Of a stretch of DNA of 64,000 bases, positions 15,421 through 50,326 are shown one piece after another. Each line of letters opens with the position of its first letter. The first letter of the stretch is position 1. The stretch covers positions 1 to 64,000 of IMG/VR virus record IMGVR_UViG_3300020578_000017; one strand, written 5' to 3'. The notes under the pieces are model-generated. The model was given only the letters and a program-made list of their open reading frames with translations, made no database searches and was not told where the DNA came from. A program made the position numbers and the translations under genes. The stretch comes from a virus.

Positions 15421-15422
15421 TT

Positions 15423-28593: not shown

Positions 28594-31512
28594 CTATGCC
28601 TTAATGTTAAGGGTTACTCTTACCCAAGCGACGCTGAACACAGGCTTGTAGAAAGCCTCAGCAAGAATGATGGTTGGATCAAGCGGACTAACTTGAACAT
28701 CAACATTCTTGAACTCTGAGACAAGTTGTGCGGAAACTAGAGACTGTAAAGAACCAGCTAGATTTGATCTCATTGAAGCTAGAAGAGAAGGTAGGTTCTT
28801 CTGGCCAATAAAGACCTCTAGTGAAGCTCTGCAGTCTTTCTGTACCTTGTCGATAACCTGAGTCACGTAAGGAGTACGGGTAAGCACTGAAGACATATCA
28901 GTAGTAAACCACTGACGAACACGAATGTTAGGACGGAAGTCTTCAAGTACAGTAACGCCAGCTACTGCAGTTTGATTTGCCTCAACGCTATCTAGGATTC
29001 TGGATAGACGCTTGAAACCAACTAATTCCTTGCGGGTCATATCGGTAGCTTCATCATACTGAGGGCTTACAACCTTACCAGCAAGAGCTGCTGCTAACAT
29101 TGCGCCGTCAACTAGATACTCATTCTCAACGCCAGCTTCATCAACAATACCTAGAACAACGCCATCTGGGTAAAGTAAGACGATTCTTGAGCCAACTAAG
29201 CCCTTGGCTAGAGACTGAGCCTTTGAAGGTGTTGTGCCTAAAGGACAGCCAAGGAACGTCATTCTCTCGCCCTGGAATCTCTCAGAAGACATCTTGTCTA
29301 CGTGAGCCTTGGCAAAGCCTTGGACCTCGCTAAGCGTAGTTAAAGGAACAACGATATCTGCATTGTAGATACCTTCAATCTTCTTTTCAAGATCTGTGAT
29401 ACCTGCAATATAAGCAGCTGCAGAAGCATCTGCCTTGCCGGGAGTCTTAAGAACTTGCTTAAAGCCAACAGCAGTTGCACCATTTAAGAATGCTAGGTAT
29501 GCAGCTAATGATAACTTGTTGTCAATATTGATGTTGCCGTACTCAGCTTCAATGTTCTTAATCTTGGTAAATACCTTGGAGCTGAAATCTTCCTTTCGGT
29601 ACTTATAAGAAACATAATAGAAGTCACCGATGGATGGCTCAGGACCACTCTTATCAAAGGTCTTGATAATGGCAGTATCACCGTCACCGCAGTCTAATGT
29701 GTTTAGAACTTGTAACTTGATACCAGGTACGTCAAGAACAAAATCATTACTTGCAGTTAGTGTGGGGTCAACAGTAACATCAATAATTAGGTAGTCATCG
29801 GCATCATAAAGACCTGAGTCCTTAATAGTGAATCTAACGCCTGTGCTTGGATCGTAGAAGGTTCTTCCTACGACACCAGAACCAGAAGTGCCAGATGCAT
29901 TATTTGAAGATACGACAAACTGAGTAGGGCTACCGAATAAAATGGTAATTATCTCGTCTACTGCCTTCTTAGGGACAGTCTGTAAGTCGGATCCAGTCTC
30001 TAGCCATACCTCTGAAGCACTCCAGTCACCGTCATCAACATCACTATCATCGGCATTTAGCTCTGCGTGAGCTAGTGAACCGCTGCTCTGTGAGGAGATA
30101 GAGTAGGTGCCAGCTCCAGCAGCGCCTGCAGACTCAACTGTAACAGTATAAACTTCATCACGTAACTGGTTATACCAGTAAGTAGCGAGTACAACTGAAT
30201 CATCCGCAATAGCTTCAGAAAGAATAACCTTATTGCCGCTAAGAGCAACTGGAGTACCACCATCTACAGAAACCTTGGTTAAGTCACGGGTTTCTCTGCC
30301 TAATCCGGAACCATCTACTGGAGTGAAAGTCATTTGCCAAACTGCAGTAGCGCCATCTACGACATCAACTGGAGATAGCACATCATTGACAAACTTGCTG
30401 TCAACTAGAGTTACCTTGACCTGGGTGTCATCGAAATACTCTTTCTTTGGAGTATGAACAGCGCCAGAAACTAAAGCAGAGGAACCCCAGTTTAGTTGAT
30501 CGCCTTCATTGACGAAACTTGCACCCTCTGCATAATCGCTGCTGCGGTTAGGGCTTGATCCGACGCCACCGCCAATGATCTCAACAACCTGCTTGTTTGG
30601 TAACGGATCAGAAGTATCTTGATAGGTATTTGTCCAATAAGATACCTTCAAGCTGCTGACTACTTCACCTAAAGTGACGCTCGCACCAGTAATAACAACA
30701 AGACCACTAACAGTACCGTAAACGCCAGCAGTACCGGTAGGGATTAAGGAGCTTAATGGAAGCTGGATGACACCATTTTGACCATCAATAACAACTGAAG
30801 TTTCTAGTACAGTCTCATCGTCGCCAGCAGTAAAAACGAGTACTGGATTTAGGTTAGGACTACCAGGTTCAATAATACCAACGCCACTGGATACAGATAA
30901 TGAACCAGCTAATGCTGAACCATTACCAGTAGAATCTACAATTGGGCTATAGAAAGTGTTAATGCTAACTAAAGCATCATGACGAGTGCCAGTTGCAACT
31001 GGAGAGCTTAAAAGATCGCTGTGAACTTCTAATTCAACTAGAAGGTCACCACGATGCCAGTAATAAGTAACGTCAACAACGTCATCTTCGAGTACGACTT
31101 GAGCTAGGTAAACCTCACCTAGTAAACCATTAACTCTGGCAACACCTGCAGCTTCACCATTAATTCTTACGGCAACCTGAGAAGGAGCTGTGGCTAAAGT
31201 GCCTGTGCCATCACCTGAAGTAATAGGAACGTTACGAACACGAACAACAGACTTCTCGCCGTCTGCATTTCCTAATAGATTTGTGTCAGGATCTACGAAA
31301 CGACCTGTCATATCTTCACGGTTAGAAATAACATCTACTGAAGCTGATGAACCGCGAACAACTTCTAAGTTACGGACTGTGTAGGTTTCTTCGCCAACAC
31401 CAACGAAAACTGGAATTCTTAAACCAGCTGAACCAACTGCGCCTTCTGTAGATACGATTGTGTTCGTATAGACTCCAGGCGGAACATAAGTAGTAAATGG
31501 ACCAATACCCAT
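28594..31512 (-). CDS. Contractile tail sheath protein (972 aa, with inserted Ig-like domains)
   Basis: Starts TYVPPGVYT..PVFVGVG; C-terminal sheath domain (AFLNGA, HVDKMS..ER, RIVLLYP, LAAALAG, YKPVFSVAWVRVT). Confidence 0.9.
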   Translation of the reverse strand: MGIGPFTTYVPPGVYTNTIVSTEGAVGSAGLRIPVFVGVGEETYTVRNLEVVRGSSASVDVISNREDMTGRFVDPDTNLLGNADGEKSVVRVRNVPITSGDGTGTLATAPSQVAVRINGEAAGVARVNGLLGEVYLAQVVLEDDVVDVTYYWHRGDLLVELEVHSDLLSSPVATGTRHDALVSINTFYSPIVDSTGNGSALAGSLSVSSGVGIIEPGSPNLNPVLVFTAGDDETVLETSVVIDGQNGVIQLPLSSLIPTGTAGVYGTVSGLVVITGASVTLGEVVSSLKVSYWTNTYQDTSDPLPNKQVVEIIGGGVGSSPNRSSDYAEGASFVNEGDQLNWGSSALVSGAVHTPKKEYFDDTQVKVTLVDSKFVNDVLSPVDVVDGATAVWQMTFTPVDGSGLGRETRDLTKVSVDGGTPVALSGNKVILSEAIADDSVVLATYWYNQLRDEVYTVTVESAGAAGAGTYSISSQSSGSLAHAELNADDSDVDDGDWSASEVWLETGSDLQTVPKKAVDEIITILFGSPTQFVVSSNNASGTSGSGVVGRTFYDPSTGVRFTIKDSGLYDADDYLIIDVTVDPTLTASNDFVLDVPGIKLQVLNTLDCGDGDTAIIKTFDKSGPEPSIGDFYYVSYKYRKEDFSSKVFTKIKNIEAEYGNINIDNKLSLAAYLAFLNGATAVGFKQVLKTPGKADASAAAYIAGITDLEKKIEGIYNADIVVPLTTLSEVQGFAKAHVDKMSSERFQGERMTFLGCPLGTTPSKAQSLAKGLVGSRIVLLYPDGVVLGIVDEAGVENEYLVDGAMLAAALAGKVVSPQYDEATDMTRKELVGFKRLSRILDSVEANQTAVAGVTVLEDFRPNIRVRQWFTTDMSSVLTRTPYVTQVIDKVQKDCRASLEVFIGQKNLPSLLASMRSNLAGSLQSLVSAQLVSEFKNVDVQVSPLDPTIILAEAFYKPVFSVAWVRVTLNIKA

Positions 31513-32222: not shown

Positions 32223-32594
32223 TTATTGATTATTAATGACGATATCAGCAACTTCTTTTCTTGACTGTTTTGTCTCATTTGAAGCTGCTTTTAAACTACC
32301 GGAGTCAGTTAGTTCAACTAAATGACTGTTTGTTTCTCTTCTGATGCTATTAGCGGTTTGATGTAAGGAATTAATCTTTTCCCATTTCTTTTCCGCATCA
32401 GAGCCAACTATTTGATCGATAGTTGCTGTTGGTGGCATACCTGCTTGATAAGTGATGCCGACAGTATGAGGCTTGAACTGACGAGGAGACATAGACTTGC
32501 AAGACTTACACTCTGCCTCGGAAACCTGACTATCTTGTACTATCTTGTCAAATAATAAACCACATTCTTTACAAAAGAAATCAAACTTTGGCAT
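32223..32594 (-). CDS. FmdB-like zinc-ribbon protein
   Basis: MPKFDFFCKECG...CKSC. Confidence 0.7.
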   Translation of the reverse strand: MPKFDFFCKECGLLFDKIVQDSQVSEAECKSCKSMSPRQFKPHTVGITYQAGMPPTATIDQIVGSDAEKKWEKINSLHQTANSIRRETNSHLVELTDSGSLKAASNETKQSRKEVADIVINNQ

Positions 32595-32596
32595 TT

Positions 32597-34477
32597 TTAC
32601 GTAACCCTCTCAGACTTTAGTATAGGGCTTTCTATGATTGGAAAAAGCGTAGGCTCTTGAAATACAGGAACATCTTTAATGTCTGAATACGCATAGCTGA
32701 TAAACTTCAAATGTACATCCCGTATTTTTATTGGAATTGGCTTTCTAATATGCCAGTCCGTTAAGAAAACAACACTTACACTTGCCATGTAGTACTGATC
32801 TGTTGTATTTTCATCATAAGGTTCTTCTGCTTCGCCTTGTATAGAAATCTCATCTAGGATTATTCCCTCGGAATCAAATCTTTCTTTTAGGGACAGAAGA
32901 TACATGGCGGTTAAATCAGTAATTTCTTCCTGCTGAATTGGGTCTAAAGCAACTATATCTAGGGTAAAAGAAACTCTAAATTTACCCCCATACTCATGGG
33001 AAGTTGGCTCAGGATCACCCGAAATAAAAACTAGCTGCCTCCCACCTACCTGAGCTTGTTTTGCGAAACTTAAAACGCAACCTTCTATTGCTTCATTATT
33101 TGCACCATACGCAGAGAATTCGTAAGGACCCTGTGAGTCTAATGCATAATAATAGCTTACCTTTACTTCACCTTCAGGAATAGCTTCATTGAATATCAGA
33201 TCATTTGTGTCAGAGTCAAATGTGAAAACTTCATGGGATATAATATCTTTCTTTACCCATACATCAACGCTTTTTGCTACAATGCCAGCATCTGGAAGCA
33301 TTATTCTCCAAGAATCATCAAACACTTCGGCTATAGGAACTGTAAGACCGGGGGATTCGCTGAGATAATAGTAGCTAGCGGTTACCCTTAATCCTGGTGG
33401 TAGCTTTTTTGAAAAAGTTACCTTGTAGCCATCTACTAGAGAAAATGTTATCTTATCTTTGCTATAAACGTCTGTATTTTCGTCTGTGTAGTTAAAAAGC
33501 TTTTCTTCATCTAACCAAACTTCTAAGGTACCTGCTACTGTTTTTGAAAACTCTAAGTCAAGTATACTTTCTGTACCGGTAGTTTTTCTCTTTAGAAGTT
33601 CGTTTGAAACTCTTTTTATTACAAAGTAATCAAAGCCAGATTGTAATGTCTCGTCGGTACTGGCCTGTACGATACTTAAGTTAATACCTGACTGCTTTTC
33701 TTTAAAGGTAATAGTACGTAAAGATTCATCTATCTCATACTTACTGCTATCTACATCAACATCATCTACTCTAACAGTTAAGTCTGTAAAAATATCAGAT
33801 CCAAGTTCTTCGTTAAAATATATCTTTGCTCTTCTAAAGTTTGAAGTACTAATAGGAAAAGGTGCCCTGTATAACAACGGGTCTACCATAAAAGTAGTGT
33901 CAGATACAATCTCTACCCCGTAAGCACCGACATGAGCCAAGTGTAAAGAGTAGTAAGCTATTTTAACTAAAGATCCAGAAGGCGGGGCTGTCCTAAGCTG
34001 CACTAAACCTTCTGTTGGGAAAATCTGAAAAGGAGTTACAGACTGCCCATCAACGTAAACGCTTATGGAGCCAACGTCATCTTTATTTAAGGATACGATC
34101 TCTTTTTCAAACTTACTAAGACCTACCAATTGCTGATTAGATAACTCAAATAAAACATTGTCACCATCTACCTGGTCTGATACATCATCTACATGATACT
34201 GTACAAGATTTTGAGTGTCTTCTCTTACCCATTCTACAGCAGAGCCAGAAATATTAACTAAGCCTACGCGAGAAAGAACTTGACCAAGATAGTTGTCTGG
34301 AGATAGCTTTATCTGCTCTGCACTACTATTTTTAACGATAATACCATACTTGCTTTTTTCATCAAGTTGGTATTTGTTTGTTACAGTAATTTTGTCGTAA
34401 ATAGGATGAGTACGAAAAGCTCCTTGAAGCTCCCGTATTAATCTACGCTTTACGGCGTTAGTTAATTGATAATAAAT
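32597..34477 (-). CDS. Tail terminator/neck-like structural protein with Ig-like inserts, 626 aa, probable ATT start
   Basis: The track ORF starts at TTG 34129, but the frame is open for 116 more codons back to ATT 34477 (IYYQLTNAVKRRLIRELQGAFRTHPIY...), with AGGTGA RBS 6 nt upstream and an in-frame TGA three codons upstream. C-terminal GGKFRVSFTLDIVALDPIQQEEITD...YYMASVSV resembles terminator folds. Confidence 0.6.
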   Translation of the reverse strand: MYYQLTNAVKRRLIRELQGAFRTHPIYDKITVTNKYQLDEKSKYGIIVKNSSAEQIKLSPDNYLGQVLSRVGLVNISGSAVEWVREDTQNLVQYHVDDVSDQVDGDNVLFELSNQQLVGLSKFEKEIVSLNKDDVGSISVYVDGQSVTPFQIFPTEGLVQLRTAPPSGSLVKIAYYSLHLAHVGAYGVEIVSDTTFMVDPLLYRAPFPISTSNFRRAKIYFNEELGSDIFTDLTVRVDDVDVDSSKYEIDESLRTITFKEKQSGINLSIVQASTDETLQSGFDYFVIKRVSNELLKRKTTGTESILDLEFSKTVAGTLEVWLDEEKLFNYTDENTDVYSKDKITFSLVDGYKVTFSKKLPPGLRVTASYYYLSESPGLTVPIAEVFDDSWRIMLPDAGIVAKSVDVWVKKDIISHEVFTFDSDTNDLIFNEAIPEGEVKVSYYYALDSQGPYEFSAYGANNEAIEGCVLSFAKQAQVGGRQLVFISGDPEPTSHEYGGKFRVSFTLDIVALDPIQQEEITDLTAMYLLSLKERFDSEGIILDEISIQGEAEEPYDENTTDQYYMASVSVVFLTDWHIRKPIPIKIRDVHLKFISYAYSDIKDVPVFQEPTLFPIIESPILKSERVT

Positions 34478-34487
34478 GACGTATCAC

Positions 34488-34745
34488 CTAATATTTTATA
34501 GTCTCGTCGGGTAGCTCATTTATGACTTTTTTCTTTTTAAGCTTATCTAAAGCTTGACCAAGGCTATCCAAATTTTGCTTTGGTAGTTTTTTTAAGCCAG
34601 GGTCACTTACAAACTTATCTAAAGCTTTTGTCAAATTAGTCTTTGACGTTTGCCCGCCACTACTTGTACTAAGTTCTTTTTTGTTTAGTAGGCCAACTTG
34701 CTTAGCATAAGAAATGGAGTCCTTGAACTTTTTCAAAGACCCCAT
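34488..34745 (-). CDS. Basic hypothetical protein; probably the -1 frame extension of the upstream gene
   Basis: The frame is open upstream of the ATG back to the A8 run at 34822-34829. Confidence 0.55.
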   Translation of the reverse strand: MGSLKKFKDSISYAKQVGLLNKKELSTSSGGQTSKTNLTKALDKFVSDPGLKKLPKQNLDSLGQALDKLKKKKVINELPDETIKY

Positions 34746-34813
34746 CCCGAATGACTTATCGGACTCAGCTACGTTCTCTAAGTAGTTTAACGCCTTAGTG
34801 ACGTTTTTATCAA

Positions 34814-35512
34814 CTACCGCGTTTTTTTTGAGAGTTTAACGAAACTGGCTTTCTTTTTGGTGACAGGAGAATCAGCAGAAGCCTTTACAGGCATTGCGCC
34901 CTCAAAGCCTCCTAAATCATCAGCCTGAGCAAAAGGAGCATGGCCTAATGAAGTTACTTCTGGAAGAGCCTCGTGACGGAAAACAGCCTTGACAGAAGAT
35001 AGGCTCTTATTAGAATCAATCCTGTCCTGAACTGCGGGGCCTTCATTTCTGGCGGTGCCGATAGAACTTGCGTCAAAGTTGGCGAACTTGGCTAGTTCCT
35101 TAGCAATTCCCATTACTAAGTTGTACTCTTCTGCATAGAGGCTAGCAACTTTAGATGCCTTCCTCTTAGAAGCAACTACTGGAGAATGGCCCATCAGCAT
35201 ATCGCTGATGGCATCTAAGCCCTTGGGGTAAAAGTCAGAGTTATGAGCCTGATCGCCATAAACAGCTTGCGCTCTAGCCTGGACTTCAGCTAATGAAGGT
35301 GGGTTCCAATCTTCCTGGGGAAGAACAGCGGATAAAGGCATATCCTTGACATGCTTCATGCCTGAAAAGTTATGATTATGAATTTCTACATTGCGACCAC
35401 TGTTGTCATGAACCTGAAAAGAATCATCAACACCAATTTCGTCTTCAGCGCCAGGAACCATTAAACTAGCTAACTTGGCTAGCTCGCGGGCAATTTCTTG
35501 ATCTCTTGACAT
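34814..35512 (-). CDS. Putative internal head protein rich in K-x-A-S motifs
   Basis: AKLAS, KRKASKVAS, AKFAN, KKKAS; AGGA RBS. Confidence 0.6.
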   Translation of the reverse strand: MSRDQEIARELAKLASLMVPGAEDEIGVDDSFQVHDNSGRNVEIHNHNFSGMKHVKDMPLSAVLPQEDWNPPSLAEVQARAQAVYGDQAHNSDFYPKGLDAISDMLMGHSPVVASKRKASKVASLYAEEYNLVMGIAKELAKFANFDASSIGTARNEGPAVQDRIDSNKSLSSVKAVFRHEALPEVTSLGHAPFAQADDLGGFEGAMPVKASADSPVTKKKASFVKLSKKTR

Positions 35513-35586
35513 TTAAAGGGAGTCCTTCTAACGATAAGTCCTACAAAAAGTATCTAAGCAAAGAATAAAAAACAAACTAAAACAAC

Positions 35587-36555
35587 TTAATCGCCAAATA
35601 GGGATTTTACTTTTTTCTGCCTATTCAAACGATTTTTATCTCTAAGAGACTTAGCCTCTTCTATGTCTTCATCTTCCTCTACATCTAAATGCTTTGGTGT
35701 GATGTCGAACTCTGGTTTCTGTGAAGGAGGGATATTTTCGGGTTCTTCTGGAGCAGCCTCTTCTTCTGCCTCAAACTCTTCAAAAGGCTCTTGTTTTGGC
35801 CTGAATGCCGAGAACTCACCCTCTTGCTCTTCCCTTTTAAAAAGCTTAGGGACTCCCTTTACTGCAGGAATAACATCCTCTTCCATTTCTTCTACCGCCT
35901 TAGTATCAATGTCCTTAGGTAGCAACGTGGTTGGGACAGTCTGTATTTCTGAAACAGCTCTGTTTTTAAATAATGGCTTTACGCCTTTTTCTGGAGCTTT
36001 TTTCTCAGAAAAAGGTGAGGAGGGTAATGCTGATACTTCTTCCTCTTCTGGTTTCTGTAATTCTTGAGGCTTAATTGGCATATCAAGTTTAAACTTATCT
36101 AAAAGTTTTCTTACTGAAGCGAATATATGCTTACAGCCATAATTTACCCTTACAGGATCTCTTACTTTAGGAGGAACAAGCTTTCCTCTTGAGTTTCCTA
36201 GTAACGCATCTTTTTGAGATAAGTTATACTGACCGCCTTGGTATAGAAAAGCTGGACAGTCGCAGTTTACTTTTATGTTTAGATCTTTTTTGTCTTCTAC
36301 CTGGGTAGGATCATCTAAAATCTGAATACTTACCTTATGACCATCTTTTTTTGAATCTTTCTCTGAGCACACTACTTTGTATACATAGATGCTATCTTTT
36401 TCAGAGTAGTTCAGTAATCCAGTTGAACAGTTTAGCGAATTTCTATTTAGTTTTGACTTAGAAGACACAATCTCATCAAGAGATATAGCTGCTATTTTGA
36501 CACGACCAGAAATAATGTTTCTGATCGTTCCAACTAACACTAGGATAGGGATCAC
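35587..36555 (-). CDS. SWIM-type zinc-finger protein with acidic/Pro-rich tail
   Basis: KVNCDCPAFLYQG...GCKHI (CxC...CxH). Confidence 0.7.
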   Translation of the reverse strand: MIPILVLVGTIRNIISGRVKIAAISLDEIVSSKSKLNRNSLNCSTGLLNYSEKDSIYVYKVVCSEKDSKKDGHKVSIQILDDPTQVEDKKDLNIKVNCDCPAFLYQGGQYNLSQKDALLGNSRGKLVPPKVRDPVRVNYGCKHIFASVRKLLDKFKLDMPIKPQELQKPEEEEVSALPSSPFSEKKAPEKGVKPLFKNRAVSEIQTVPTTLLPKDIDTKAVEEMEEDVIPAVKGVPKLFKREEQEGEFSAFRPKQEPFEEFEAEEEAAPEEPENIPPSQKPEFDITPKHLDVEEDEDIEEAKSLRDKNRLNRQKKVKSLFGD

Positions 36556-37574
36556 TCACTGTCCTCAAGCTGTGCGGCAACCATAAGACCCCTAGCTACG
36601 GCAGTAAGTGGATCAGATGCATGTCTAATTTCTCTTACCTCAAAGGGGAAGTTACTCTTATGCTTTTCAAATACCTTTTTAAACATATCAACGAAACCGC
36701 CTGCAAGAGAAGTACCGCCTGCGATTACGATAGGAATAGCATCAGAAAGCTCTACCTTAGCGTTTTTCATCTCTTTGACTACAAATGAAACGGCTCTTTC
36801 GATTAGAGTCTGGTAGTAGAATGCAATAGCTTCTTCTTCCTTTGAACTAAAATCATCGGCCATAATATTAACGCCTTTTTCCTTGATGATCTGAATGCGG
36901 GAAGCTGTGGTGCTTAAGGCTCTAGCCACGCTTGCGTCAATCTGATCGCCGGAACCTTGAATTGAGAACTGAAGAATAGGCATAGTCATGTAGCTAAAAC
37001 AAACGTTGACCATACCGCCACCGAAAGACATGGATAAACCTGTAAAATTGCTATCCTGGCACTCAGCATAAATGATTGCCATAGCTTCATTGATTGGTAC
37101 AGGTCTAAATCCCAGGCTAGATACTAGCCTCTCAAGAACCTTTGTATGGTAGATATTGTTTACGCCTTTGTTATCTACTGGATCTGCGGGAATAGAATAG
37201 CAAACAACCTCACCTTCCTTTGCAGGCTCACCAAGTAGGCTCTTAATAATAGCGGCTAGAATATCCCCAGAAATCGCTAGCTCTTCTGGGGATATTAAAC
37301 CATCCTTTAATGGCCTTCTTGCTTCTCTCTTAAGTAGATTTGCAAAGTTTACTGACTCATCGCCAATAATATAGAAGTTGCCACCTAGCTCAAGTAGCTT
37401 GGCACCGGACATCTTGATAGTATTTTTAATGAAGGGCTCATCAGGTACATCTATAAAAGAGTCTCTAATCTTTGTAAGAACTACTTCTCCTGAAGCATTT
37501 TTAACTGCCGAAACAAAGAAACATGTACCAGCGTCAAGTCCCCTACCTGGGTTAATATCAGTTTTCTTAGCCAT
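36552..37574 (-). CDS. Actin-like ATPase (MreB/FtsA/ParM superfamily)
   Basis: Phosphate-1 GLDAGTC, connect-1 INEAMAI, phosphate-2 SFGGGMVN, adenosine IVIAGGTSLAGGF, connect-2 DPLTAVARG; also RRPLKDGLI resembling MreB RPMKDGVI. Confidence 0.9.
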   Translation of the reverse strand: MAKKTDINPGRGLDAGTCFFVSAVKNASGEVVLTKIRDSFIDVPDEPFIKNTIKMSGAKLLELGGNFYIIGDESVNFANLLKREARRPLKDGLISPEELAISGDILAAIIKSLLGEPAKEGEVVCYSIPADPVDNKGVNNIYHTKVLERLVSSLGFRPVPINEAMAIIYAECQDSNFTGLSMSFGGGMVNVCFSYMTMPILQFSIQGSGDQIDASVARALSTTASRIQIIKEKGVNIMADDFSSKEEEAIAFYYQTLIERAVSFVVKEMKNAKVELSDAIPIVIAGGTSLAGGFVDMFKKVFEKHKSNFPFEVREIRHASDPLTAVARGLMVAAQLEDSE

Positions 37575-38157
37575 CGGTATTACTCTTCTTTTTCCTTAAC
37601 TTTTTAAGCTCCTCAAGAGCTTTATCTGCGATTTCATCTGCAACAACTGCAGAATCAGCTTTTAGGGAAACATCATCTTTAACTTTGAATGTCGGTATAA
37701 AAAGCTCTTCTGCAACACTGTCTGGTATCGCAGCAATAACAGGCTTGGCATGATTATAATCAGAAACAGGTGCCTGTTGAACTGGAATTCCTTTTGCTAA
37801 CAAGTCAACTATAGAATGAATTGAACCCGCTAAACTTTGAATATCTGAGTTTAGCTTTGCGATATCTTTTTTAATGGCATCCATATTGGCATCAGCTTTG
37901 CTGACTGCCATAGGCTTAACGACGTTATTCGACTGAGGAACGGGGGGCCTAGGACCAACGTTTTTTCTGCTGTCCATAGAGGCATAACGAACTTCTGCAT
38001 CTGATACAGAAATAATCCATCTCTTATGAATTGCTTGAACTACAGATGGAGAAGCTTGCTGTTCTTCAGTCAAGTAATAAATATCGCCATAGTTTTTCCA
38101 GGTGCAACCTACTTCTAGGTCCATTACACCATGAACTGCTGACATAAATGCTTGCAT
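37567..38157 (-). CDS. Hypothetical coiled-coil protein coupled to the actin-like gene (candidate adaptor)
   Basis: 8-nt overlap with the actin gene; coiled coil MDAIKKDIAKLNSDIQSL and basic C-terminal helix ALEELKKLRKKK. Confidence 0.65.
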   Translation of the reverse strand: MQAFMSAVHGVMDLEVGCTWKNYGDIYYLTEEQQASPSVVQAIHKRWIISVSDAEVRYASMDSRKNVGPRPPVPQSNNVVKPMAVSKADANMDAIKKDIAKLNSDIQSLAGSIHSIVDLLAKGIPVQQAPVSDYNHAKPVIAAIPDSVAEELFIPTFKVKDDVSLKADSAVVADEIADKALEELKKLRKKKSNTDG

Positions 38158-38167
38158 TTAATTTTAC

Positions 38168-38992
38168 CTACTCTAATTGAGATATTAGAGACTTAGCGAG
38201 TTTTTTAGTATAGAGACGAAGCGTAGACATAATGAAATTTTCACCATGTAGGGACCTTATGAAGTTTTTGTACTTCAAAATGGCTTCATCGTCATTTACA
38301 ACTTTTTTGACTCGCTTCTCTCTTTCTGTTCCCCAAGTTTCATTCGTATCTTGATCTAAGACTTTACTGGCAGTTCCCCACCTTACATTTCGTCTTAAGT
38401 TCTTATAGCCAAACTTGGTTCCCCAGCTTAAAAATTTACGGTCATCCTTAACTGTTCTTCCTTTACTTCCCCAGGTTTTTGCTGTTTTTGTGCTATCGAA
38501 AGAACGACCACCAGTTCCCCACCGACTAGCCTTTTCTCTAACATTAAAATTTGTCTTTTTAGGGGATTTTTTACCTCGCTCTATGGCTCTCTGCCTAAGA
38601 GTAGCGAGGTAGGAGTCTTGTCTTTTTGTGGCAGCTGGAGTTTTTACATCTCTTTTTTTTGGCACTAAGTATCTTAACTCAACACCACCTACTTTAGCAC
38701 TTAGTTTCTTAGAGTATAAAAGTTTTTTAGTTTTTCTCTCTCTTACAGTTTCTTTTTCTTCAATTACAAGTAACTGTTTTACAACAACAATGACTTTAAT
38801 TCTATTGTTGTTTACTACTTTTATAAGAAATTGAACTTGGTTTCTGTATTCAGGATAAGTTCTATATGTCTGGGATTGCTGCCAACTTCTTTTCAGGTCT
38901 CTGGAAAAAGTAATAAAAATTCTTCTAAACTGAGACACCGTAGGACCTTTAATTCGTGATAGTTTTTTAAGTCCTTGAGAAAACTTGAACAT
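38168..38992 (-). CDS. Very basic protein with five WG[T/S] repeats (neck/tail-completion position)
   Basis: RWGTG, TWGSK, SWGTK, RWGTA, TWGTE; K/R-rich. Confidence 0.7.
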   Translation of the reverse strand: MFKFSQGLKKLSRIKGPTVSQFRRIFITFSRDLKRSWQQSQTYRTYPEYRNQVQFLIKVVNNNRIKVIVVVKQLLVIEEKETVRERKTKKLLYSKKLSAKVGGVELRYLVPKKRDVKTPAATKRQDSYLATLRQRAIERGKKSPKKTNFNVREKASRWGTGGRSFDSTKTAKTWGSKGRTVKDDRKFLSWGTKFGYKNLRRNVRWGTASKVLDQDTNETWGTEREKRVKKVVNDDEAILKYKNFIRSLHGENFIMSTLRLYTKKLAKSLISQLE

Positions 38993-40213
38993 CTAGAATA
39001 AATCTTCCCAGACTTTTTTCCTTGCCTTTATGACTTCTGGCGTTACGGTAATGTCTGGGTCTTTATTTGGAGCTTGGACAAGGCTGGCTTTTAGCGGAAC
39101 AGAATACCTAATGTCACGAGAACCTATTAATGATAAGTTGAACCTTTGTTGTAATGGAGCTCCACTAACGGTTGTAAGATTTACAGCACCAATAGAAAAT
39201 CTATCACCATTCTTCCTGACAATAAAATCTCGCTGTGAAATTAAAGGTGTTGCACCAGTCCAGGCTTCAAAGGTAAAAGTCGGCTTTAATCCCTCTGGGG
39301 TAGCCTCAAGACTCTTAGACTCATCTGGAGGCGCAATCAATATATCGTAAGGTCCTGTGTACCCGCCAATATACCCCGTACCAAAACATATTGTGCAATC
39401 ATTCAGCGTTGACTTATGAGTTGGGCTATTATTATGGCATTCAGAACCAGACCATTTACGTAAAAATAACTTTACTCTCTCGCCACCCTGCTCAAGAATA
39501 AAATTGTTCCTATTCATGGCCTCCTTCCAATAAGGCTCTGCTTCAGTCATTTCTTCAAGTCTGACCATAACTGCTGCCGCCAAGGGAGTTTCTTTAATCT
39601 CTGATGTTGCAGTGTCTTCACCTACTGTAGTGAGCTTATAATAAAGCCTTCTATTGAGATTTGTCTGAACAAAGTTGGTGACCGAATAGTAAGAGCAAGT
39701 AACTTGACTTCCTGTTTGCGGTAATATGGCTGGAATTGATATATGCGAGACTGGATCGTATACTTTTTTTGTGTTAAGCCAAACTAATGATTTTGCACCA
39801 TCGGCTTTAAATGGTGCTATACTCTGTCCGTCTATATTAACTGTAATCTCTTGACCTTCACTGTACTGTAGATATATCTGGTCATTGAGCACAGGCTTGC
39901 CTGATGTCCTAAAAATCCACTCTTTCTTTGGATTAGTACCACGAGTTGTAAAAGAGTCGGAAACATTTTCTGTGACTAGCTCTATTTTATGGGCGTCCCT
40001 AAAATATCCAACATCAATTGGATCTGTATTTACTTTTGTGTATACACCATTCGGGTCATCATAGGCTCTATAAATATTGACCCCAACAATATTGAAGCCA
40101 TAGTTTGATGCATCAAGCTTTGGGTCACCGAATGCAATATCGATAGCAAACTGAACCCCTGGGTTATATATGCTTGCCTCAGGGGGGCTTTTAGGGAATC
40201 CATATCCGCTCAT
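38993..40213 (-). CDS. Neck/head-closure protein with zinc finger
   Basis: GERVKLFLRKWSGSEC...CTICFGTGYIGGY...AWTGATPLISQRDFIV..GDRFSI, plus an Ig-like insert. Confidence 0.65.
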   Translation of the reverse strand: MSGYGFPKSPPEASIYNPGVQFAIDIAFGDPKLDASNYGFNIVGVNIYRAYDDPNGVYTKVNTDPIDVGYFRDAHKIELVTENVSDSFTTRGTNPKKEWIFRTSGKPVLNDQIYLQYSEGQEITVNIDGQSIAPFKADGAKSLVWLNTKKVYDPVSHISIPAILPQTGSQVTCSYYSVTNFVQTNLNRRLYYKLTTVGEDTATSEIKETPLAAAVMVRLEEMTEAEPYWKEAMNRNNFILEQGGERVKLFLRKWSGSECHNNSPTHKSTLNDCTICFGTGYIGGYTGPYDILIAPPDESKSLEATPEGLKPTFTFEAWTGATPLISQRDFIVRKNGDRFSIGAVNLTTVSGAPLQQRFNLSLIGSRDIRYSVPLKASLVQAPNKDPDITVTPEVIKARKKVWEDLF

Positions 40214-40216
40214 AAA

Positions 40217-40591
40217 TTAGACTTCGCTATCTAAGCTTTCTAAATCAAAAGCTACAGCTCCTGTTTCTCGATTAATCTTAAACGGATGATTGGCAGGAAT
40301 ACCGTACTTAAGCATGACTTCTTGAAGTAGGTTGTTTTTTAAGTTTCTAGCAGAAGCCAATTGCTCAATAAAATATGCCTTACGCTCCTCAAGCATACCA
40401 ATCTCATAAAGAAAGTTTTTAATCTGAACATCGGCGCTATTCAAAGCACCGAGGTCAGAAGACTCTACTACTGGAGATTTCGTAGGGGCTTGAAGTCTAC
40501 CTGCTCGGTAGTCCTCAAGTAGCTTAAGCTCTTCAGCTGAAAGCTGATCATTTTCTGATTGCTGCAACGTTTTCTTACCTCTAGATGACAC
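40217..40591 (-). CDS. Small coiled-coil protein (paralog of 41828-42154)
   Basis: KYGIPANHPFKINRETGAV. Confidence 0.7.
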   Translation of the reverse strand: MSSRGKKTLQQSENDQLSAEELKLLEDYRAGRLQAPTKSPVVESSDLGALNSADVQIKNFLYEIGMLEERKAYFIEQLASARNLKNNLLQEVMLKYGIPANHPFKINRETGAVAFDLESLDSEV

Positions 40592-42925: not shown

Positions 42926-44014
42926 TCAACCAAAGATGCTAAGCTCATGCTCTGGGCTATATAGATTGTCTGATAGTGCTTTTGATCTCGTAGTACCTAA
43001 GAGGTGAACCTGAGTACCCCTCTTAGCAGATAGGCTAAAATCTGTTGATACTTTACGCATACTACAATCTTCTAGCATTGCAATAGCACCTGAATCAATG
43101 TCAATATCTACTTTTTTATTATTAACTAAGTCAACGTTATGTAAGTCAATCTTTGCGGACTTAAGTCCTAAAAACCCAAGAGTATTATTAGACACAAGAG
43201 AACTCTTAACTTCATTTCTGCTAGAAATGGTAGCTAGCTCAACCCTGGCTACACTATCATTTTCAGTTACAACTGAGCTTGTGAAATCAATAATACTATT
43301 ATTCTTGGACTCAAATGCCAAATTATTTGATGATACTTTAGCACTTACTAATGACACATTCGATAACGAATCTGCACTAACCGCTACATTATTTGCCTCA
43401 AAGAAACTCTCTCTGATATCAGCGGTAGATGTATTTACTGCCCTTACGCCAATTTTATTGTTTAAGAAAATACAGCTATTTAATGTGTAAGTAGACGCTT
43501 GATTAGATAAAGAAAGAGCAATATAGTTATCTCTTAGAACACATTTGTTCATATCAATCTTTGCTGAGTTTATAACTTTTACAGCTTCTCCGCGATAACC
43601 TTGGATCGTAATGTCCCTGATGCATACTCCTTGAGCAAAATCAACAATTACGCAGTGCTCTAGGCTATTGTCCCCAGAAAGAACTACAGTAGCGCTGTCC
43701 TGTGGCTTAATGATGATAAACCCATTAGCGCCTAATACATGTTGATTGAATTTAACTGTCTCTGTATATATGCCCTTAGCTAACCTTATCTCTACTGGAT
43801 GATTGATGAAAATAGGTAGGCTATCAACAGCTGCTTGGATAGACTTTTTAGGTGCTAACTTGTCTCCTAAAAACATATCATCACCATTTACAAGATCAAC
43901 ATAAACAGAATAATCTGAAGTAGTGGTGGTTGCTTTACCCTTTAATTCAACAGTTAGGCCCTCTACGTGGTCCTGGGTGATTGCGAGTATCTGATTAGCT
44001 CTAATCCTAGCCAT
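42926..44014 (-). CDS. Right-handed parallel beta-helix (pectin-lyase-like) virion protein
   Basis: VYVDLVNGDD...PKKSIQAAVD..IRLAKGIYTE entry motif followed by regular NN-x-x-[G/A] coils. Confidence 0.8.
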   Translation of the reverse strand: MARIRANQILAITQDHVEGLTVELKGKATTTTSDYSVYVDLVNGDDMFLGDKLAPKKSIQAAVDSLPIFINHPVEIRLAKGIYTETVKFNQHVLGANGFIIIKPQDSATVVLSGDNSLEHCVIVDFAQGVCIRDITIQGYRGEAVKVINSAKIDMNKCVLRDNYIALSLSNQASTYTLNSCIFLNNKIGVRAVNTSTADIRESFFEANNVAVSADSLSNVSLVSAKVSSNNLAFESKNNSIIDFTSSVVTENDSVARVELATISSRNEVKSSLVSNNTLGFLGLKSAKIDLHNVDLVNNKKVDIDIDSGAIAMLEDCSMRKVSTDFSLSAKRGTQVHLLGTTRSKALSDNLYSPEHELSIFG

Positions 44015-44058
44015 ATTTATATTTATACCGTTTTGAGTAGGTTACTAGAGTATTATAG

Positions 44059-44100
44059 TTAAAAAGCCCGAGGGGGGCAAGAAAAATCTTGCCCCCCTCC
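44059..44100 (-). terminator. Intrinsic terminator after fibre gene
   Basis: Minus strand GAGGGGGGCAAGA-TTTT-TCTTGCCCCCCTC then GGGCTTTTT. Confidence 0.75.
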
Positions 44101-44131
44101 TACCACTTAAGATAGTAAGGTTTTATATTCG

Positions 44132-46174
44132 TTAGATGTTGGTAGACTTGGCGAAGTAACGAATATAGATATGGTCGCCGACGATAGAACCGTAAACCTT
44201 AACGACGCGGCTCTCACGAGTAAAGGTGAACTGGGGCATTTCTGCACCAGAGTTGCCTTCTTCGATTAGCTGACCGTTTAGGTATACTTCTAGGTCGGAA
44301 TCAGAAGCAGCGCCTGCGGAAGGAACAGCGAAATTCGCTTGGTTGTAGTAGTAGCCAGAAGCTAATACGACTTCATCGTTAGAATCATCAGCAATAACTG
44401 CCTTAGCCTTAGGCTCCTTGATACCTAGAGAGCCTAGGGCGTGGCTGTGTAGTGCGTCTGCACCAGAGATGACAGAATCGTTGACTAGCTTAGCTAGGTC
44501 GGAACCTAGGGCTGTGTCACCAGCGAAGGAGAAGCTGGCATCTGCATCAACGCTGAAGCTGGCGCCAGCTTGCATAGAAATGCTTGCACCAGACTCAACT
44601 ACCATTGAACCATGACCTTTTTGAACATTGCTCTTTAGGATTAGGTCGCCACCCTCGTCGATGGTTAGGTTTGCACCGGAAACCATGGTGACAGAAGACT
44701 TTAGGCTGCTGTTGCCATCGAAACCTAGTGCAACGGTGTTACCTAGAACGTAAATGTTCTGACCAGCCTGTAGGGTACCTGCACCGGAGAACTGGACGAA
44801 GTTTAGGTCATCGCCAGCGTCAGCAATGGCTAATGCAGAGATTGAGGAATTTAGTACCCAAGAAGTGTTGGACTGATCGGTACCATTCTTAACAAAGCAG
44901 TAAGTACCACGGGGTAGCTCACCGACAATGTTAGCATCCTCATCACGCTCAAGAACCCAGGCGGAAGAAACGCTACCCTTATCGATAACGATATAGATGC
45001 CGTTGAACTTGGCAAGAGCCTCGTCCTTGATTAGGACGCGATCACCATTATCAACAGAGTAACCATCAAGTACTAAAGCGCCGTTGTTCTCAGCGGTTAG
45101 CTTGGTGTGCTTGATTCCATGGCTGTTGTTAGAAGCGCTCTCAGAAGCATTGTTGGCAGGTAGAGCAACCTTAGAAGCAGCCCAGACCATCTCCTTAACG
45201 GTTAGACCCTGAGCAACGTGGTCAACATACTGCTTGGTGGCAGCTTGTAGAGCAGAAGCAGGATCTTGAGCTAAGGTTACGGTTGATTGGAAGGTAGCTG
45301 CACCCTTCTGTAGCATAGTGCTTTCCATGGTGATAGCACCGGTTACCTGGACTGCGCCAGCGAACTGAGCTAAACCACCAACGTTTAGAGTGCTCTTTAG
45401 AGCAGAAGCGCCAGTGACAACGACAGAGCTAGCAAACTGAGCCGCACCAGCAACGTCTAAGGTGCTCTCTAGAACAGAAGCGCCAGTGATCTGAACGTTA
45501 TTAGCGAACTGAGCTAAACCAGCAACGTCTAGAGTGCTCTTTAGAATAGAAGCACCAGTGATCTGAACGTTATTAGCGAACTGAGCTAAACCAGCAACGT
45601 CTAAGGTGCTCTTTAGCATAGAAGCGCCAGTGACGCTAACGGAGCTAGCAAGCTGAGCCGCGCCAGCAACGTCTAGAGTGCTCTGTAGAATAGAAGCACC
45701 AGTGATCTGAACGTTATTAGCGAACTGAGCTAAACCGACAACGTCTAAGGTGCTCTTTAGAGCAGAAGCGCCAGTGACAACGACAGAGCTAGCAAACTGA
45801 GCCGCACCAGCAACGTCTAAGAGGCTCTCTAGAATAGAAGCGCCGGTAACGGTTAAAGCGCCACCAACTTGTAGGGCGGCCTTCATCTGAGCGTTGCCGC
45901 TTGCGATTAAGGTGCCACCGATTAGAGCATTGCCAGTGATGCTGGCTTCTTGACCAACATATAAACCACTAGCAATATGAACATTGGCTAAGAAATCAGC
46001 GCCAGAACGTACACTTAAAGTACCTGATAAAGTAGCGCCGCTAGAGACGGTTAAAGAACCGCTTAGCGCAGTGCCACTTGCGACAGAGAAGGTGCCTCTG
46101 ATCGCAATGTTGTTCTCTAAGTGACGTGAAGCAATTGCTCCACTGGCGATTTGGAAACCCCTAAATTGTCCCAT
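44132..46174 (-). CDS. Head/tail fibre protein with beta-solenoid repeats
   Basis: 24-aa repeats; AATKQYVD; LDGYSVDNGDRVLIKDE..FNGIYIV fibre module; GAGG RBS. Confidence 0.75.
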   Translation of the reverse strand: MGQFRGFQIASGAIASRHLENNIAIRGTFSVASGTALSGSLTVSSGATLSGTLSVRSGADFLANVHIASGLYVGQEASITGNALIGGTLIASGNAQMKAALQVGGALTVTGASILESLLDVAGAAQFASSVVVTGASALKSTLDVVGLAQFANNVQITGASILQSTLDVAGAAQLASSVSVTGASMLKSTLDVAGLAQFANNVQITGASILKSTLDVAGLAQFANNVQITGASVLESTLDVAGAAQFASSVVVTGASALKSTLNVGGLAQFAGAVQVTGAITMESTMLQKGAATFQSTVTLAQDPASALQAATKQYVDHVAQGLTVKEMVWAASKVALPANNASESASNNSHGIKHTKLTAENNGALVLDGYSVDNGDRVLIKDEALAKFNGIYIVIDKGSVSSAWVLERDEDANIVGELPRGTYCFVKNGTDQSNTSWVLNSSISALAIADAGDDLNFVQFSGAGTLQAGQNIYVLGNTVALGFDGNSSLKSSVTMVSGANLTIDEGGDLILKSNVQKGHGSMVVESGASISMQAGASFSVDADASFSFAGDTALGSDLAKLVNDSVISGADALHSHALGSLGIKEPKAKAVIADDSNDEVVLASGYYYNQANFAVPSAGAASDSDLEVYLNGQLIEEGNSGAEMPQFTFTRESRVVKVYGSIVGDHIYIRYFAKSTNI
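45317..45820 (-). repeat. Seven tandem 72-bp (24-aa) repeats in fibre gene
   Basis: Two unit types, LDVAGAAQFASSVVVTGASALKST and LDVAGLAQFANNVQITGASILKST; near-identical DNA at 360-bp offset (45390-45461 vs 45750-45821). Confidence 0.9.
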
Positions 46175-46232: not shown

Positions 46233-46502
46233 TTAACTATGTAAAAGAGACTTTAAGCTTTGGACTCTATCTGCATAGCTTAAAGCATCAACTTTTGACC
46301 TTCGTCCAAAATATTCATTTCTTAGCTGACTTATTCCGCCTAAATCATGAAATACAAAAAAGAACCTTGACTTATCTTTCCTGGTTTTTACCATGTCGCA
46401 TCCTGCACACTGAAGAAATGCAGCAAAGTACAAATCGCAGGTTTCGTATTCTTTTTCTTGAAGACTTGGGGCTTCCATACTATTATCCTTTAAATTTATC
46501 AT
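46233..46502 (-). CDS. Small DUF5659-like protein
   Basis: YETCDLYFAAFL..G...FFVF...LKSLL pattern. Confidence 0.55.
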   Translation of the reverse strand: MINLKDNSMEAPSLQEKEYETCDLYFAAFLQCAGCDMVKTRKDKSRFFFVFHDLGGISQLRNEYFGRRSKVDALSYADRVQSLKSLLHS

Positions 46503-46836
46503 AAGAAGCTGTATTATACCCTCTTTCTTTTGCTAGCTTCTTCGCATCGGACCAAGAAGATACAATCTCACCATTGACATTAGGTAAAACTTTATCTGAC
46601 TTGTGCTCTACTCTTTGCTTTCTATCTAGCAATAAAGAGTTTTTTGTTCTTAACTCTTTTTCCTTCAGTAACTTACCTGTCCAGTTATCTCCCTTAAGAT
46701 GGATATTTGGATTACCTATTAATTTCTGTAAGAAGTTTGAGCAACTATCGCAAGAAAATACTGGTCTTTCTTTTATTGAGTGCGATACCTCACAGTAAGT
46801 ATCGCACTCCTTGCAATATAAAGTATATTTAGGCAT
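46483..46836 (-). CDS. FmdB-like zinc-ribbon protein
   Basis: MPKYTLYCKECD..HSI..CDSC..LQKLI..LKGDNW. Confidence 0.75.
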   Translation of the reverse strand: MPKYTLYCKECDTYCEVSHSIKERPVFSCDSCSNFLQKLIGNPNIHLKGDNWTGKLLKEKELRTKNSLLLDRKQRVEHKSDKVLPNVNGEIVSSWSDAKKLAKERGYNTASYDKFKG

Positions 46837-47887: not shown

Positions 47888-48751
47888 CTATCGAGCAATC
47901 GATAGAGACTGGAGGCCTAGTGGGTTGTGAATACCGATACCGACGTTCTCGAATACGGAGAAGCCGATTAGGCGGTTCTTTGGATCATCAGCGGAAAGAA
48001 CGGTTAGTTCTGTACGAACTGGCATTCTGCCGAAGAACTCAGGCTCGGCGCAGACGTATACGGTTCCGGGAGGAACGATACGAGAAACGATGATCTGAGC
48101 GCCCCAGATGTAAGCCATTAGACCGGTCTTTAGTAAGACGGCCTGAGTCTCGATATCTAGGATATCGCGACCAAACTTACGGATATCGGTGTAGTCCTTA
48201 GCATTCATGAAGATGCGGGAAACACGAAGGTCCCAACGCTCAATGTCAGCAAAGGCATCAGCTAGAGCGGAGGGGGTTAGGGGAGCGGTGATACCGATCT
48301 GCTGGTTAGGGGAGTTTGCAGCGCCGATAACAGCGTTCATTACTGCAAAGCTCTTGGTATCTTCTTGAGCCTGGATTTCAGCCTTGGCTAGATCCTGTGC
48401 ACGCTCAATTAGGTCGAAGCGGCGCTCCTTGACCTGAGTTAGAGGAATCTCAGGGTTGGAAGCGATTTCGAATAGGGGGAATAGAACACGAAGGCTCTTG
48501 GAAACAGAGATGATGTTCTCACCCTCTTCGCCCATTACAAATGCGGTGACATCGGGGTCACGGTCATAGATGGGTAGAGCGCCATCAGGTAGTTGCTCGA
48601 CGAGGTAAGCCTTACGGGCAACGGAAGAATAGTCGCGACGGCGACGTAGGGGCTGGACCATAGAAGCAGCTAGCTTAGCGCGACCACCAGCGGTCTTGAC
48701 TAAGTCGGAGATAATCCGTTGCTTGGTCTCGTTAGAAATGTGATCAGACAT
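47888..48751 (-). CDS. Major capsid protein (HK97 fold)
   Basis: AAGGAG RBS, strongly biased codon usage; VEQLPDGALPIYDRD..FEIASNPEI..WGAQIIVS; follows protease/scaffold/decoration genes and is followed by a terminator. Confidence 0.85.
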   Translation of the reverse strand: MSDHISNETKQRIISDLVKTAGGRAKLAASMVQPLRRRRDYSSVARKAYLVEQLPDGALPIYDRDPDVTAFVMGEEGENIISVSKSLRVLFPLFEIASNPEIPLTQVKERRFDLIERAQDLAKAEIQAQEDTKSFAVMNAVIGAANSPNQQIGITAPLTPSALADAFADIERWDLRVSRIFMNAKDYTDIRKFGRDILDIETQAVLLKTGLMAYIWGAQIIVSRIVPPGTVYVCAEPEFFGRMPVRTELTVLSADDPKNRLIGFSVFENVGIGIHNPLGLQSLSIAR

Positions 48752-48771
48752 TGTATCTTATCTCCTTACTC

Positions 48772-49272: not shown

Positions 49273-49311
49273 TTTTTTTTACCTTTCTCCTACAATCAGG
49301 AAAAACATTTT

Positions 49312-50304: not shown

Positions 50305-50326
50305 AGTAGTTTAAATAACCTCCAAG

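Follow-up and report, generated by a model that had tools for sequence, protein, structure and literature searches.

A volactin-family actin and its conserved upstream partner in the virion gene block of uncultured jumbo phages

Introduction

Why should a large phage carry a gene for an actin-like ATPase in the midst of its virion genes? The question is posed by a 64,000-nucleotide stretch of viral DNA (hereafter 'the window'), the first 64 kb of the linear 116-kb IMG/VR virus record IMGVR_UViG_3300020578_000017, which is estimated to be 65% complete and stems from a large, uncultured phage of lake water; the contigs of four lake-water runs represent nearly the same DNA, with one difference. 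On the minus strand, which holds nearly all long open reading frames (ORFs) of the window, three ORFs follow one another at 37567-38157 (196 amino acids, aa), 36552-37574 (340 aa) and 35587-36555 (322 aa, GTG start). A first-pass annotation had read them as an actin-like ATPase coupled to an upstream coiled-coil protein and a downstream SWIM-finger protein inside a neck/tail module, and the coordinates and overlaps that it gave for the three ORFs are exact.

The phage cytoskeletons known so far are mainly the PhuZ tubulin of nucleus-forming jumbo phages, together with a few ParM- or AlpC-like actins that are tied to DNA. Here we describe an actin of a different family which, with what appears to be its own adaptor, is a constant element of the structural block in the 80 best of 350 IMG/VR loci. 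If its filaments handle virion parts, big phages would possess a second, independent way of organizing assembly in space.

The 340-aa protein belongs to the Volactin family

The 340-aa protein (minus strand, 36552-37574) matches the Pfam family Volactin (PF25216) with an E-value of 1.2e-68 and a score of 232.5 bits (232.2 in the genome search), the cut-off being 35, its residues 11-334 covering model positions 3-321 of 321. No other family, MreB_Mbl included, was found in it by Pfam at E<=0.1, and PHROG, NCBIfam and PDB sequences gave no match. Its AlphaFold2 (AF2) model (pLDDT 91.8, pTM 0.90) has the two-lobed actin (ASKHA) fold, related by Foldseek with a probability of 1.00 to MamK, MreB, BeeR, crenactin and actin. 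Its nearest solved structures in the PDB, MamK, MreB and BeeR (TM 0.66-0.72, E ~1e-14), possess the same five-motif core and share only 17-19% identity with the phage protein.

Alignment with two outgroup MreBs revealed intact nucleotide-binding motifs, with phosphate-1 (GLDAGT), the connect-1 Glu (E163) and the adenosine motif (AGGTS) placed on those of MreB, and with phosphate-2 (SFGGGMVN) aligned to DIGGGTTD of MreB, from which it differs by Ser, Met and Asn in place of Asp, Thr and Asp. Among other residues, D14, G16, T17, E163, S183, G185, G187, M188, G286, G287 and T288 are invariant in 30 aligned phage and metagenome members. SFGxGMxN, GDWID, NEAMA and GGTS are invariant in these 30 as well as in a seven-row alignment with one Planctomycetes protein, and the same motifs recur in the Halococcaceae, Planctomycetota, Omnitrophota and Bryobacteraceae rows. 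The full-length family match, the AF2 model and the alignment of the motifs with MreB bear out the actin fold proposed in the first-pass annotation and, at the level of sequence and model, confirm the predicted product as a genuine actin-fold ATPase and a new member of the named Volactin family. The SFGGG variant of phosphate-2 had been taken as the mark of a distinct family, which is correct relative to MreB; however, the family so marked already has its name, SFGGG being a hallmark of Volactin since neither phage nor cellular members vary at S183, G185, G187 or M188. The designation 'new actin family' was rejected because of the full-length match to the existing Pfam family.

The single studied member of the family is volactin (VolA, HVO_2015) of Haloferax volcanii, whose dynamic filaments, observed in vivo, bridge the cytoplasm from one membrane to the other and which has an effect on the rod-to-disk transition (PMC10869688). 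The window protein is a full-length match to the same family and carries the same S-F-G-x-G-M-x-N, GDWID and NEAMA motifs, but differs in being viral and in lying within a virion gene block. No description of volactin-family actins in phages was found in the literature searched, whose coverage leaves out most subscription journals.

The upstream gene is a conserved companion of volactin

Scanning IMG/VR with the single sequence yielded no relative, whereas a profile scan with an alignment showed that 350 of 408 candidate stretches encode a volactin relative. The best 80 of these 350 loci were fetched and compared; their contigs range from 5 to 619 kb, and many loci that lack a flanking match end at a contig edge. 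A word-index search gave 361 relatives among 8,000 candidates scored, PF25216 being present on all 120 matches listed.

The conserved partner and putative adaptor (minus strand, 37567-38157, 196 aa) consists of an N-terminal domain of ~50 aa, a long helix (residues 88-123), an ELFIPTFKV motif and a C-terminal helix ending in '..ADKALEELKKLRKKK'. The AF2 model has an overall pLDDT of 68 only, with helix 88-123 at pLDDT 90-95, a basic C-terminal helix at residues 170-193 and, at low confidence, a beta-beta-alpha-alpha-beta N-domain; the long helix and the basic C-terminal helix expected from the letters alone are thus both present in the model. The window partner has no Pfam, PHROG or NCBIfam match and, as judged by its sequence, no membrane segment. 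Likewise, no Pfam family was detected in the four phage partners tested, the window's included, and a fifth gave only a sub-threshold match to Phasin.

Using the window partner as a tblastn query, only one relative (locus L002) was recovered in the 80 loci. A hidden Markov model (HMM) built from 36 similar small upstream proteins of the loci and the window's own, on the other hand, matched an ORF upstream of volactin in 74 of the 80, and four of the six loci that it missed have <1 kb of upstream DNA. The two genes are separated by <=150 nucleotides (nt) in 45 of the 74 loci, by <=1.1 kb in 19 and by more in 10. In the family alignment the N-domain of ~50 residues is followed by a variable linker, the motif P-x-F-I-P-S-x-I-V, an acidic or Ser-rich stretch and, at the C-terminus, D-x-A-x-x-A-L-K-x-L-R-K-K, which is kept across the family. 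Searching 1.84 billion representatives with the partner profile gave 1,324 clusters at E<=1e-3, and the best 150 of these comprise proteins of 166-253 aa matched end to end, without fused forms. One copy each of partner and actin is present in the window's record.

Tunturiibacter phage Tunturi_5, a cultured relative whose capsid protein is 50% identical to that of the window, possesses homologues of the genes flanking the pair and of the sheath gene ('tail sheath'), and neither volactin nor the partner was found in its complete 308.7-kb genome. The presence of the partner gene ahead of volactin in 74 of the 80 loci, and the lack of either gene in Tunturi_5, support its predicted status as a conserved companion of volactin, already suggested in the first reading of this locus.

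A separate observation concerns a four-copy family of 23-nt repeats (34533-34555, 34605-34627, 36085-36107 and 37600-37622; 74-83% identity to the reference copy), all of which encode in frame (A/L)L(D/E)(K/E)(L/F)(K/V). One copy lies in the C-terminal helix of the partner, one just after the SWIM-like domain of the 322-aa protein and two in an 85-aa ORF. The pattern [AL]L[DE][KE][LF][KV], which was derived from these copies, has five occurrences in the 68 minus-strand ORFs, where 0.11 would be expected; in L002, the orthologue of the SWIM-like gene is without this ALDK-type peptide. It may be a docking peptide common to several proteins, or chance.

The cassette keeps its place among the virion genes

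The partner stop overlaps the actin ATG by 8 nt (ATGGCTAA), the actin TGA overlaps the GTG of the 322-aa gene by 4 nt (GTGA), and a gap of only 10 nt separates the partner gene from the preceding 274-aa gene. By consensus scan only, a strong terminator-like hairpin of 13 pairs, nine of them GC, was detected on the minus strand at 44070-44099, where a promoter-like site overlaps it; the same scan gave no other strong terminator-like hairpin in 31-44.5 kb and none between 44070 and the cassette. This site is a possible start of a transcription unit running through the cassette and, on account of the 8-nt and 4-nt overlaps, the 10-nt gap and the sole strong terminator, the cassette genes seem to belong to a single long transcription unit of structural genes.

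In the synteny survey called for by the first-pass annotation, volactin was found to be flanked by the same virion genes in 55-62 of the 80 loci. Using the window neighbours as tblastn queries, homologues were recovered at the same position for the upstream 406-aa gene (minus strand, 38993-40213) in 55 of the 80, for the downstream 510-aa gene (minus strand, 32597-34129) in 62 and for the tail sheath gene (minus strand, 28594-31512; 972 aa; phrog_279, E 2.8e-14), some 6 kb downstream of volactin, in 60. The sheath genes of eight loci (L007, L016, L024, L045, L054, L073, L079 and L109) encode 1,428-1,793 aa, which greatly exceeds the 972 aa of the window's sheath and the length of usual sheaths.

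Volactin matches were found in two of 50,697 phage records, LR745208.1 and LR756511.1, both of metagenomic origin. LR745208.1 (485 kb) has the same gene order as the window, with partner and volactin both present and adjacent. As read from gene content and order, the conserved cassette of volactin and putative adaptor, kept in the virion module across a large clade of jumbo phages, represents a variation on known actin-adaptor systems.

Viral volactins are deeply diverged from cellular ones

Two quick maximum-likelihood trees were computed, both rooted on two MreB outgroup rows. The first had 85 rows, including one ORF picked in error, and the second 94, as this row was taken out while the two GenBank phages and eight rows from haloarchaea came in. 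In the first tree, all 66 viral rows together with L086, a locus labelled Thermoplasmatales, form a clade with an SH-aLRT support of 98, and the 12 Planctomycetota rows another with 100. In the second, 65 viral rows form a clade (SH-aLRT 96), the window pairs with L002 (99), a branch with a support of only 24 has the 67 syntenic viral rows together on one side, away from MreB, and LR756511.1 is placed elsewhere on a long branch. In both trees the MreB outgroup is set apart from every volactin by a branch with 100% support.

The viral volactins share 31-41% identity with the cellular ones found, the window protein ~35% with that of the haloarchaeal locus L085, and synteny is kept over viral lineages that have only 42-58% identity among themselves. 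As the trees separate viral from cellular volactins and the identity between them is low, recent capture from a host is ruled out as far as sequence comparison can tell, and the phylogeny that the earlier reading had proposed as a check reveals neither nesting within host MreB nor a recent non-syntenic capture.

In phages, inteins tend to occupy conserved positions of proteins that are indispensable. Intein, LAGLIDADG or HNH domains are carried by 11 of 37 longer volactin relatives, all outside the window (P0121, P0122, P0143, P0146, P0148, P0150, P0152-P0155 and P0157), and in the five forms aligned the inteins occupy two sites, either right after SFGxGMxN (phosphate-2) or right before GDWID. 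The other 26 of the 37, with 632-927 aa, are of Planctomycetes type, and the contigs that encode some of them reach 3 Mb.

Cellular volactins and their upstream genes

A scan of one genome per species yielded 19 volactin loci. Two of them (L083 and L087) are, by their gene content, phage contigs binned into metagenome-assembled genomes, because partner, sheath and flanking genes are all present. In 11 of 12 Planctomycetota-type loci an ORF of 191-247 aa ends directly upstream of volactin, and the twelfth (L098) has 282 nt of upstream DNA only; the context of one such locus (L090) is chromosomal, with ExbD, a TPR protein and a histidine kinase. A profile of nine Planctomycetota upstream proteins aligned with the phage partner profile over 50 columns of the N-domain (hhalign probability 87.6%, E 3.5e-6). 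Upstream genes of 182-195 aa, with a 'FIP' motif and a tail '..EDSADLLSEIQKEKK', were found at L086 and at L101 (labelled Heimdallarchaeota); they matched the phage partner profile weakly (E 1e-3, probability 20%), and Pfam placed a NUDIX protein and glycosyltransferases near L086.

Volactin scored above the cut-off in 26 of 41 sampled Halobacteria genomes. In 18 of these 26 loci the upstream protein has ~295-390 aa and a C-terminal part with 'VDxQVxGLKGLKGG' and 'VDDQTAKLKELRE', and the N-terminal part of the upstream protein at L085 is DUF7139 (E 5e-44), a domain on which no paper was found in the literature searched, within the same limit of coverage. The neighbour of VolA resembles the window partner in having a long linker and a similar-looking C-terminal peptide but is a DUF7139/CdpA-like membrane protein, whereas the window's is a soluble protein of 196 aa. 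According to a study of CdpA, this CdpA-like membrane protein, HVO_2016, adjoins volactin, and volactin is listed in the CdpA pull-down with a Log2FC of 2.5 and a p of 0.06 (PMC12126565). In the proteome tables of the volactin study, read without their column headings, the values of HVO_2015 and HVO_2016 are positive and alike in four of five comparisons, which is only a hint that the two genes are co-regulated (PMC10869688).

When haloarchaeal upstream proteins were searched with an HMM of the 16-residue C-terminal motif, the best E-value was 0.0027, for two identical proteins, followed by 0.27 for a TPR protein that is likely a false positive and by >=0.39 for the rest, and the window's own partner was not recovered. 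Owing to these weak matches and to the missed window partner, the apparent resemblance of the haloarchaeal peptides to the phage partner tail is only a lead. A second volactin match was seen inside frames of 1,184-1,258 aa in the haloarchaeal genomes G020, G033, G037 and G043 (one at locus L140, the other three at sites not assigned to a locus), and these frames may be fused or intein-bearing copies.

A possible role of the cassette in handling virion parts

In the explanation that we favour, and which we hold to be probable if only just, the 340-aa and 196-aa genes are a late-expressed cassette of a phage volactin ATPase and its dedicated adaptor, which organizes or moves virion parts. The cassette would have been inherited within the neck-to-tail structural block across a large clade of uncultured jumbo myoviruses. 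Homology with VolA and nearness to filament-forming folds make it probable that the phage volactin forms dynamic filaments by polymerizing with ATP. The adaptor, for its part, can with reasonable likelihood be expected to dock on volactin through its basic C-terminal helix (..DxAxxALKxLRKK) in the manner of ParR/AlpA-type adaptors and WH2-type peptides, because this helix is conserved, the two genes are tightly linked and absent together, and ParR and AlpA provide an analogy. Its N-terminal domain would then hold cargo or an anchor. As the cassette sits in a structural operon the system would most likely act late, organizing or moving heads, necks or tails in the infected cell, and the fixed position between neck-side and tail-side genes makes a virion part a conceivable, if rather doubtful, choice of cargo. 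The capsid trafficking or virion assembly suggested by the first-pass annotation would likewise be read from gene position.

The functional model for this explanation is the PhuZ spindle of Chimalliviridae, a phage cytoskeleton that likewise organizes capsids or particles, as described in two reports (PMC9067925, PMC8314001). PhuZ, however, has a tubulin and the window protein an actin fold, and the phage lineages differ; no tubulin-family gene was found in the 116-kb record (~65% complete). A bolder proposal, which we consider improbable as a whole, is that volactin filaments, held by the adaptor through its C-terminal helix, carry or align heads, necks or tails by way of the adaptor's N-domain, which would make this the first system in prokaryotic viruses to assemble or transport virions with an actin, and that cellular volactins use the same adaptor principle. 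If it were true, cellular upstream genes ending in a DxAxxL(K/S)xL-type peptide, in Planctomycetota and perhaps HVO_2016, would be volactin-binding factors. The partner family, with its 1,324 clusters unnamed in the libraries searched, provides candidates for these factors, which the H. volcanii work calls unknown (PMC10869688).

Several observations weigh against the explanation favoured here. Among the 50,697 phage records there is no cultured phage with volactin, and LR756511.1 (locus L108, 595 kb) encodes a divergent volactin (33% identity) in another gene context, in which neither the partner family nor recognizable virion neighbours were found; because of this record, the volactin family is not tied to the virion module everywhere. 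One to three genes lie between partner and actin in 10 of the 74 loci, and the branch joining the window and L002 to the other 65 viral rows has a support of 24 only. The AF2 model of the partner gave nothing at E<=0.001 in the PDB with Foldseek, its N-domain fold being unrecognized. The phosphate-2 motif of volactin departs from that of MreB at three positions (Ser, Met and Asn instead of Asp, Thr and Asp), as is also true of the family of the H. volcanii protein, and for this reason ATP turnover may be unusual. Finally, four relatives on contigs of 5-170 kb (P0012, P0019, P0021 and P0121) carry an N-terminal extension of ~60-70 residues which in P0012, P0019 and P0121 gave sub-threshold helix-turn-helix (HTH) matches (HTH_23, E 4e-5 to 0.024); such a possibly HTH-like extension would fit a DNA-linked rather than a virion-linked role.

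Of the other explanations, remodelling of the host cell survives best, although we regard it as unlikely: late in infection, actin and adaptor would alter or stabilize the shape or size of the cell, or prevent its division, in order to enlarge the factory. Such a role would suit the studied volactin, which controls the rod-to-disk transition of H. volcanii with filaments that span the cytoplasm (PMC10869688). It would also suit the Planctomycetota and haloarchaeal volactins, which stand beside adaptor- or anchor-like genes in a chromosomal context without phage genes, the CdpA-like membrane protein HVO_2016 being one such neighbour (PMC12126565). Takeover genes, however, are usually early and outside the structural block, whereas in 55-62 of 80 loci the phage volactin keeps its position amid the same virion genes, and the window partner has no membrane segment.

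A slightly smaller chance is given to an ATPase that does not form filaments but acts like a chaperone in neck or tail assembly, or is itself a virion component, for which the Hsp70 homologue of closteroviruses offers a parallel. The position of the gene among virion genes would agree with this, and the fold superfamily indeed includes Hsp70 and EutJ: EutJ ranks 12th in the Foldseek search of the PDB with the actin model, and viral Hsp70 homologues dominate the structure search of BFVD. Nevertheless, the closest solved folds are those of filament formers and no Hsp70 appears among the PDB rows to rank 50; the actin core takes up residues 11-334 of 340, with no substrate-binding domain; and the studied family member polymerizes (PMC10869688).

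Actin-like systems of the ParMRC kind comprise an adaptor and a centromere. Positioning or segregation of DNA in this manner, or in that of AlpAC, the adaptor binding phage DNA and the actin moving genomes, for example towards packaging, is likewise improbable, and we place it just behind the chaperone-like ATPase. AlpC/AlpA of the Corynebacterium prophage CGP3 (PMC4446434, PMC5539076) and plasmid ParM/ParR are, like the window pair, a mobile-element actin-like ATPase with a small adjacent adaptor gene, and the window adaptor, with its N-terminal domain, linker and C-terminal helix, is likened to AlpA and ParR by architecture, not by sequence. The HTH-like extension of some phage volactins (HTH_23, E 4e-5, below cut-off) would also fit a DNA-linked system. 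ParM, however, ranks only 42nd among the fold matches of the actin model. AlpA and ParR bind centromere-like DNA in DNA transport or replication, whereas no DNA-binding domain or repeat site was found at the cassette: the partner has no DNA-binding family match, its N-domain has no PDB match (a weak negative, given the low-confidence model), and 34000-40500 contains no centromere-like repeat array, its only tandem being a two-copy 21-nt unit at 34165-34205. In addition, the partner gene is preceded by a gap of only 10 nt, and the cassette is in the structural and not in the replication block.

A recent, functionless capture of a host actin gene is very improbable, since apart from the existence of cellular volactins in Planctomycetota, haloarchaea and others nothing speaks for it, and against it stand an identity to these of at most 35-41%, the separate grouping of the viral rows, synteny over 42-58% identity, invariant motifs and inteins that target the gene.

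Neighbouring genes and other features of the window

The 322-aa gene downstream of the actin gene (minus strand, 35587-36555) encodes a protein with a CxC...CxH domain at residues ~60-160 and an acidic, Lys-rich tail. The zinc finger announced by the first-pass annotation holds only as a SWIM-like signature (C88-x-C90 ... C151-x-H153, with a spacer of ~60 residues) that is kept in four homologues; Pfam gave no match at E<=0.1, nor did NCBIfam match the protein, and the spacer usual for the SWIM zinc finger (PF04434) is shorter. In the Atlas, the nearest viral clusters score 0.94-0.95 and have PF04434 on 10-16% of their members, which is a lead only. Homologues of the gene were found in four of the 80 loci, in three of them 1.8-3.1 kb from actin, and gp336 of Tunturi_5, encoded near the capsid gene and annotated 'tail protein', is 36% identical over 139 aa. 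Owing to the presence of homologues in four of 80 loci only and in the volactin-less Tunturi_5, the candidacy of the SWIM-like gene as a coupled partner of the actin was rejected; judged by this distribution, it is a lineage-specific neighbour from the virion module, outside the actin system.

The 406-aa product of the conserved virion-module gene upstream of the cassette is a homologue of Tunturi_5 gp322, annotated 'minor tail protein'; Pfam and PHROGs gave no match, and neither did a search of PDB sequences with its profile (best E 0.066). It has a four-Cys cluster, of which C259, C273 and C276 are invariant and C261 nearly so in the alignment with homologues. Between this gene and the partner lies a variable gene for a very basic protein (minus strand, 38168-38992, 274 aa), with a tblastn homologue in none of the 80 loci and no Pfam or PHROG match.

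Two lineage-specific small genes on the minus strand are inserted between the cassette and the 510-aa gene, one of 232 aa (34814-35512), whose homologue was found only in L002 among the 80 loci, and one of 85 aa (34488-34745) with two copies of the ALDK(L/F) peptide motif. A gap of 358 nt between the 85-aa ORF and the 510-aa gene, the only sizeable intergenic space in the block, contains the two-copy 21-nt tandem repeat at 34165-34205. The 510-aa protein of the conserved downstream virion-module gene is a homologue of Tunturi_5 gp324, called 'tail terminator' by the depositors; it matched DUF2460 of Pfam at sub-threshold level only, and its profile found no match among PDB sequences (best E 0.095). 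The next gene, in front of that for the sheath, encodes a Zn-ribbon (FmdB-like) protein (minus strand, 32223-32594; Pfam Zn_ribbon_8, E 7e-7, below cut-off) and has a counterpart in 45 of the 80 loci; a second FmdB-like Zn-ribbon protein is encoded in the structural block at 46483-46836.

PHROG and Pfam scans gave the window a myovirus layout, with primase, clamp loader, NusG-like and sigma-like genes at 59.6-63.8 kb, large terminase at 55421-57241, portal at 53380-55098, protease at 50755-51894, major head protein at 47888-48751 and a 1,196-aa protein with an amidase at 22490-26080; no tRNA genes were found in the window. The neck/tail setting first proposed for the cassette is thus correct in that the sheath lies downstream and the genes for major capsid protein, portal, protease and terminase lie upstream, while the term 'neck' derives only from the depositors' names for the Tunturi_5 homologues. 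Four back-to-back genes of 1,169-1,200 aa each, one with an Amidase_2 domain, occupy 11818-26080. The GC content is 0.49 at 44001-46000 and 0.51 at 48001-50000 as against ~0.38 elsewhere, and at 49312-50314 ORFs of 330 and 331 aa are found on opposite strands.

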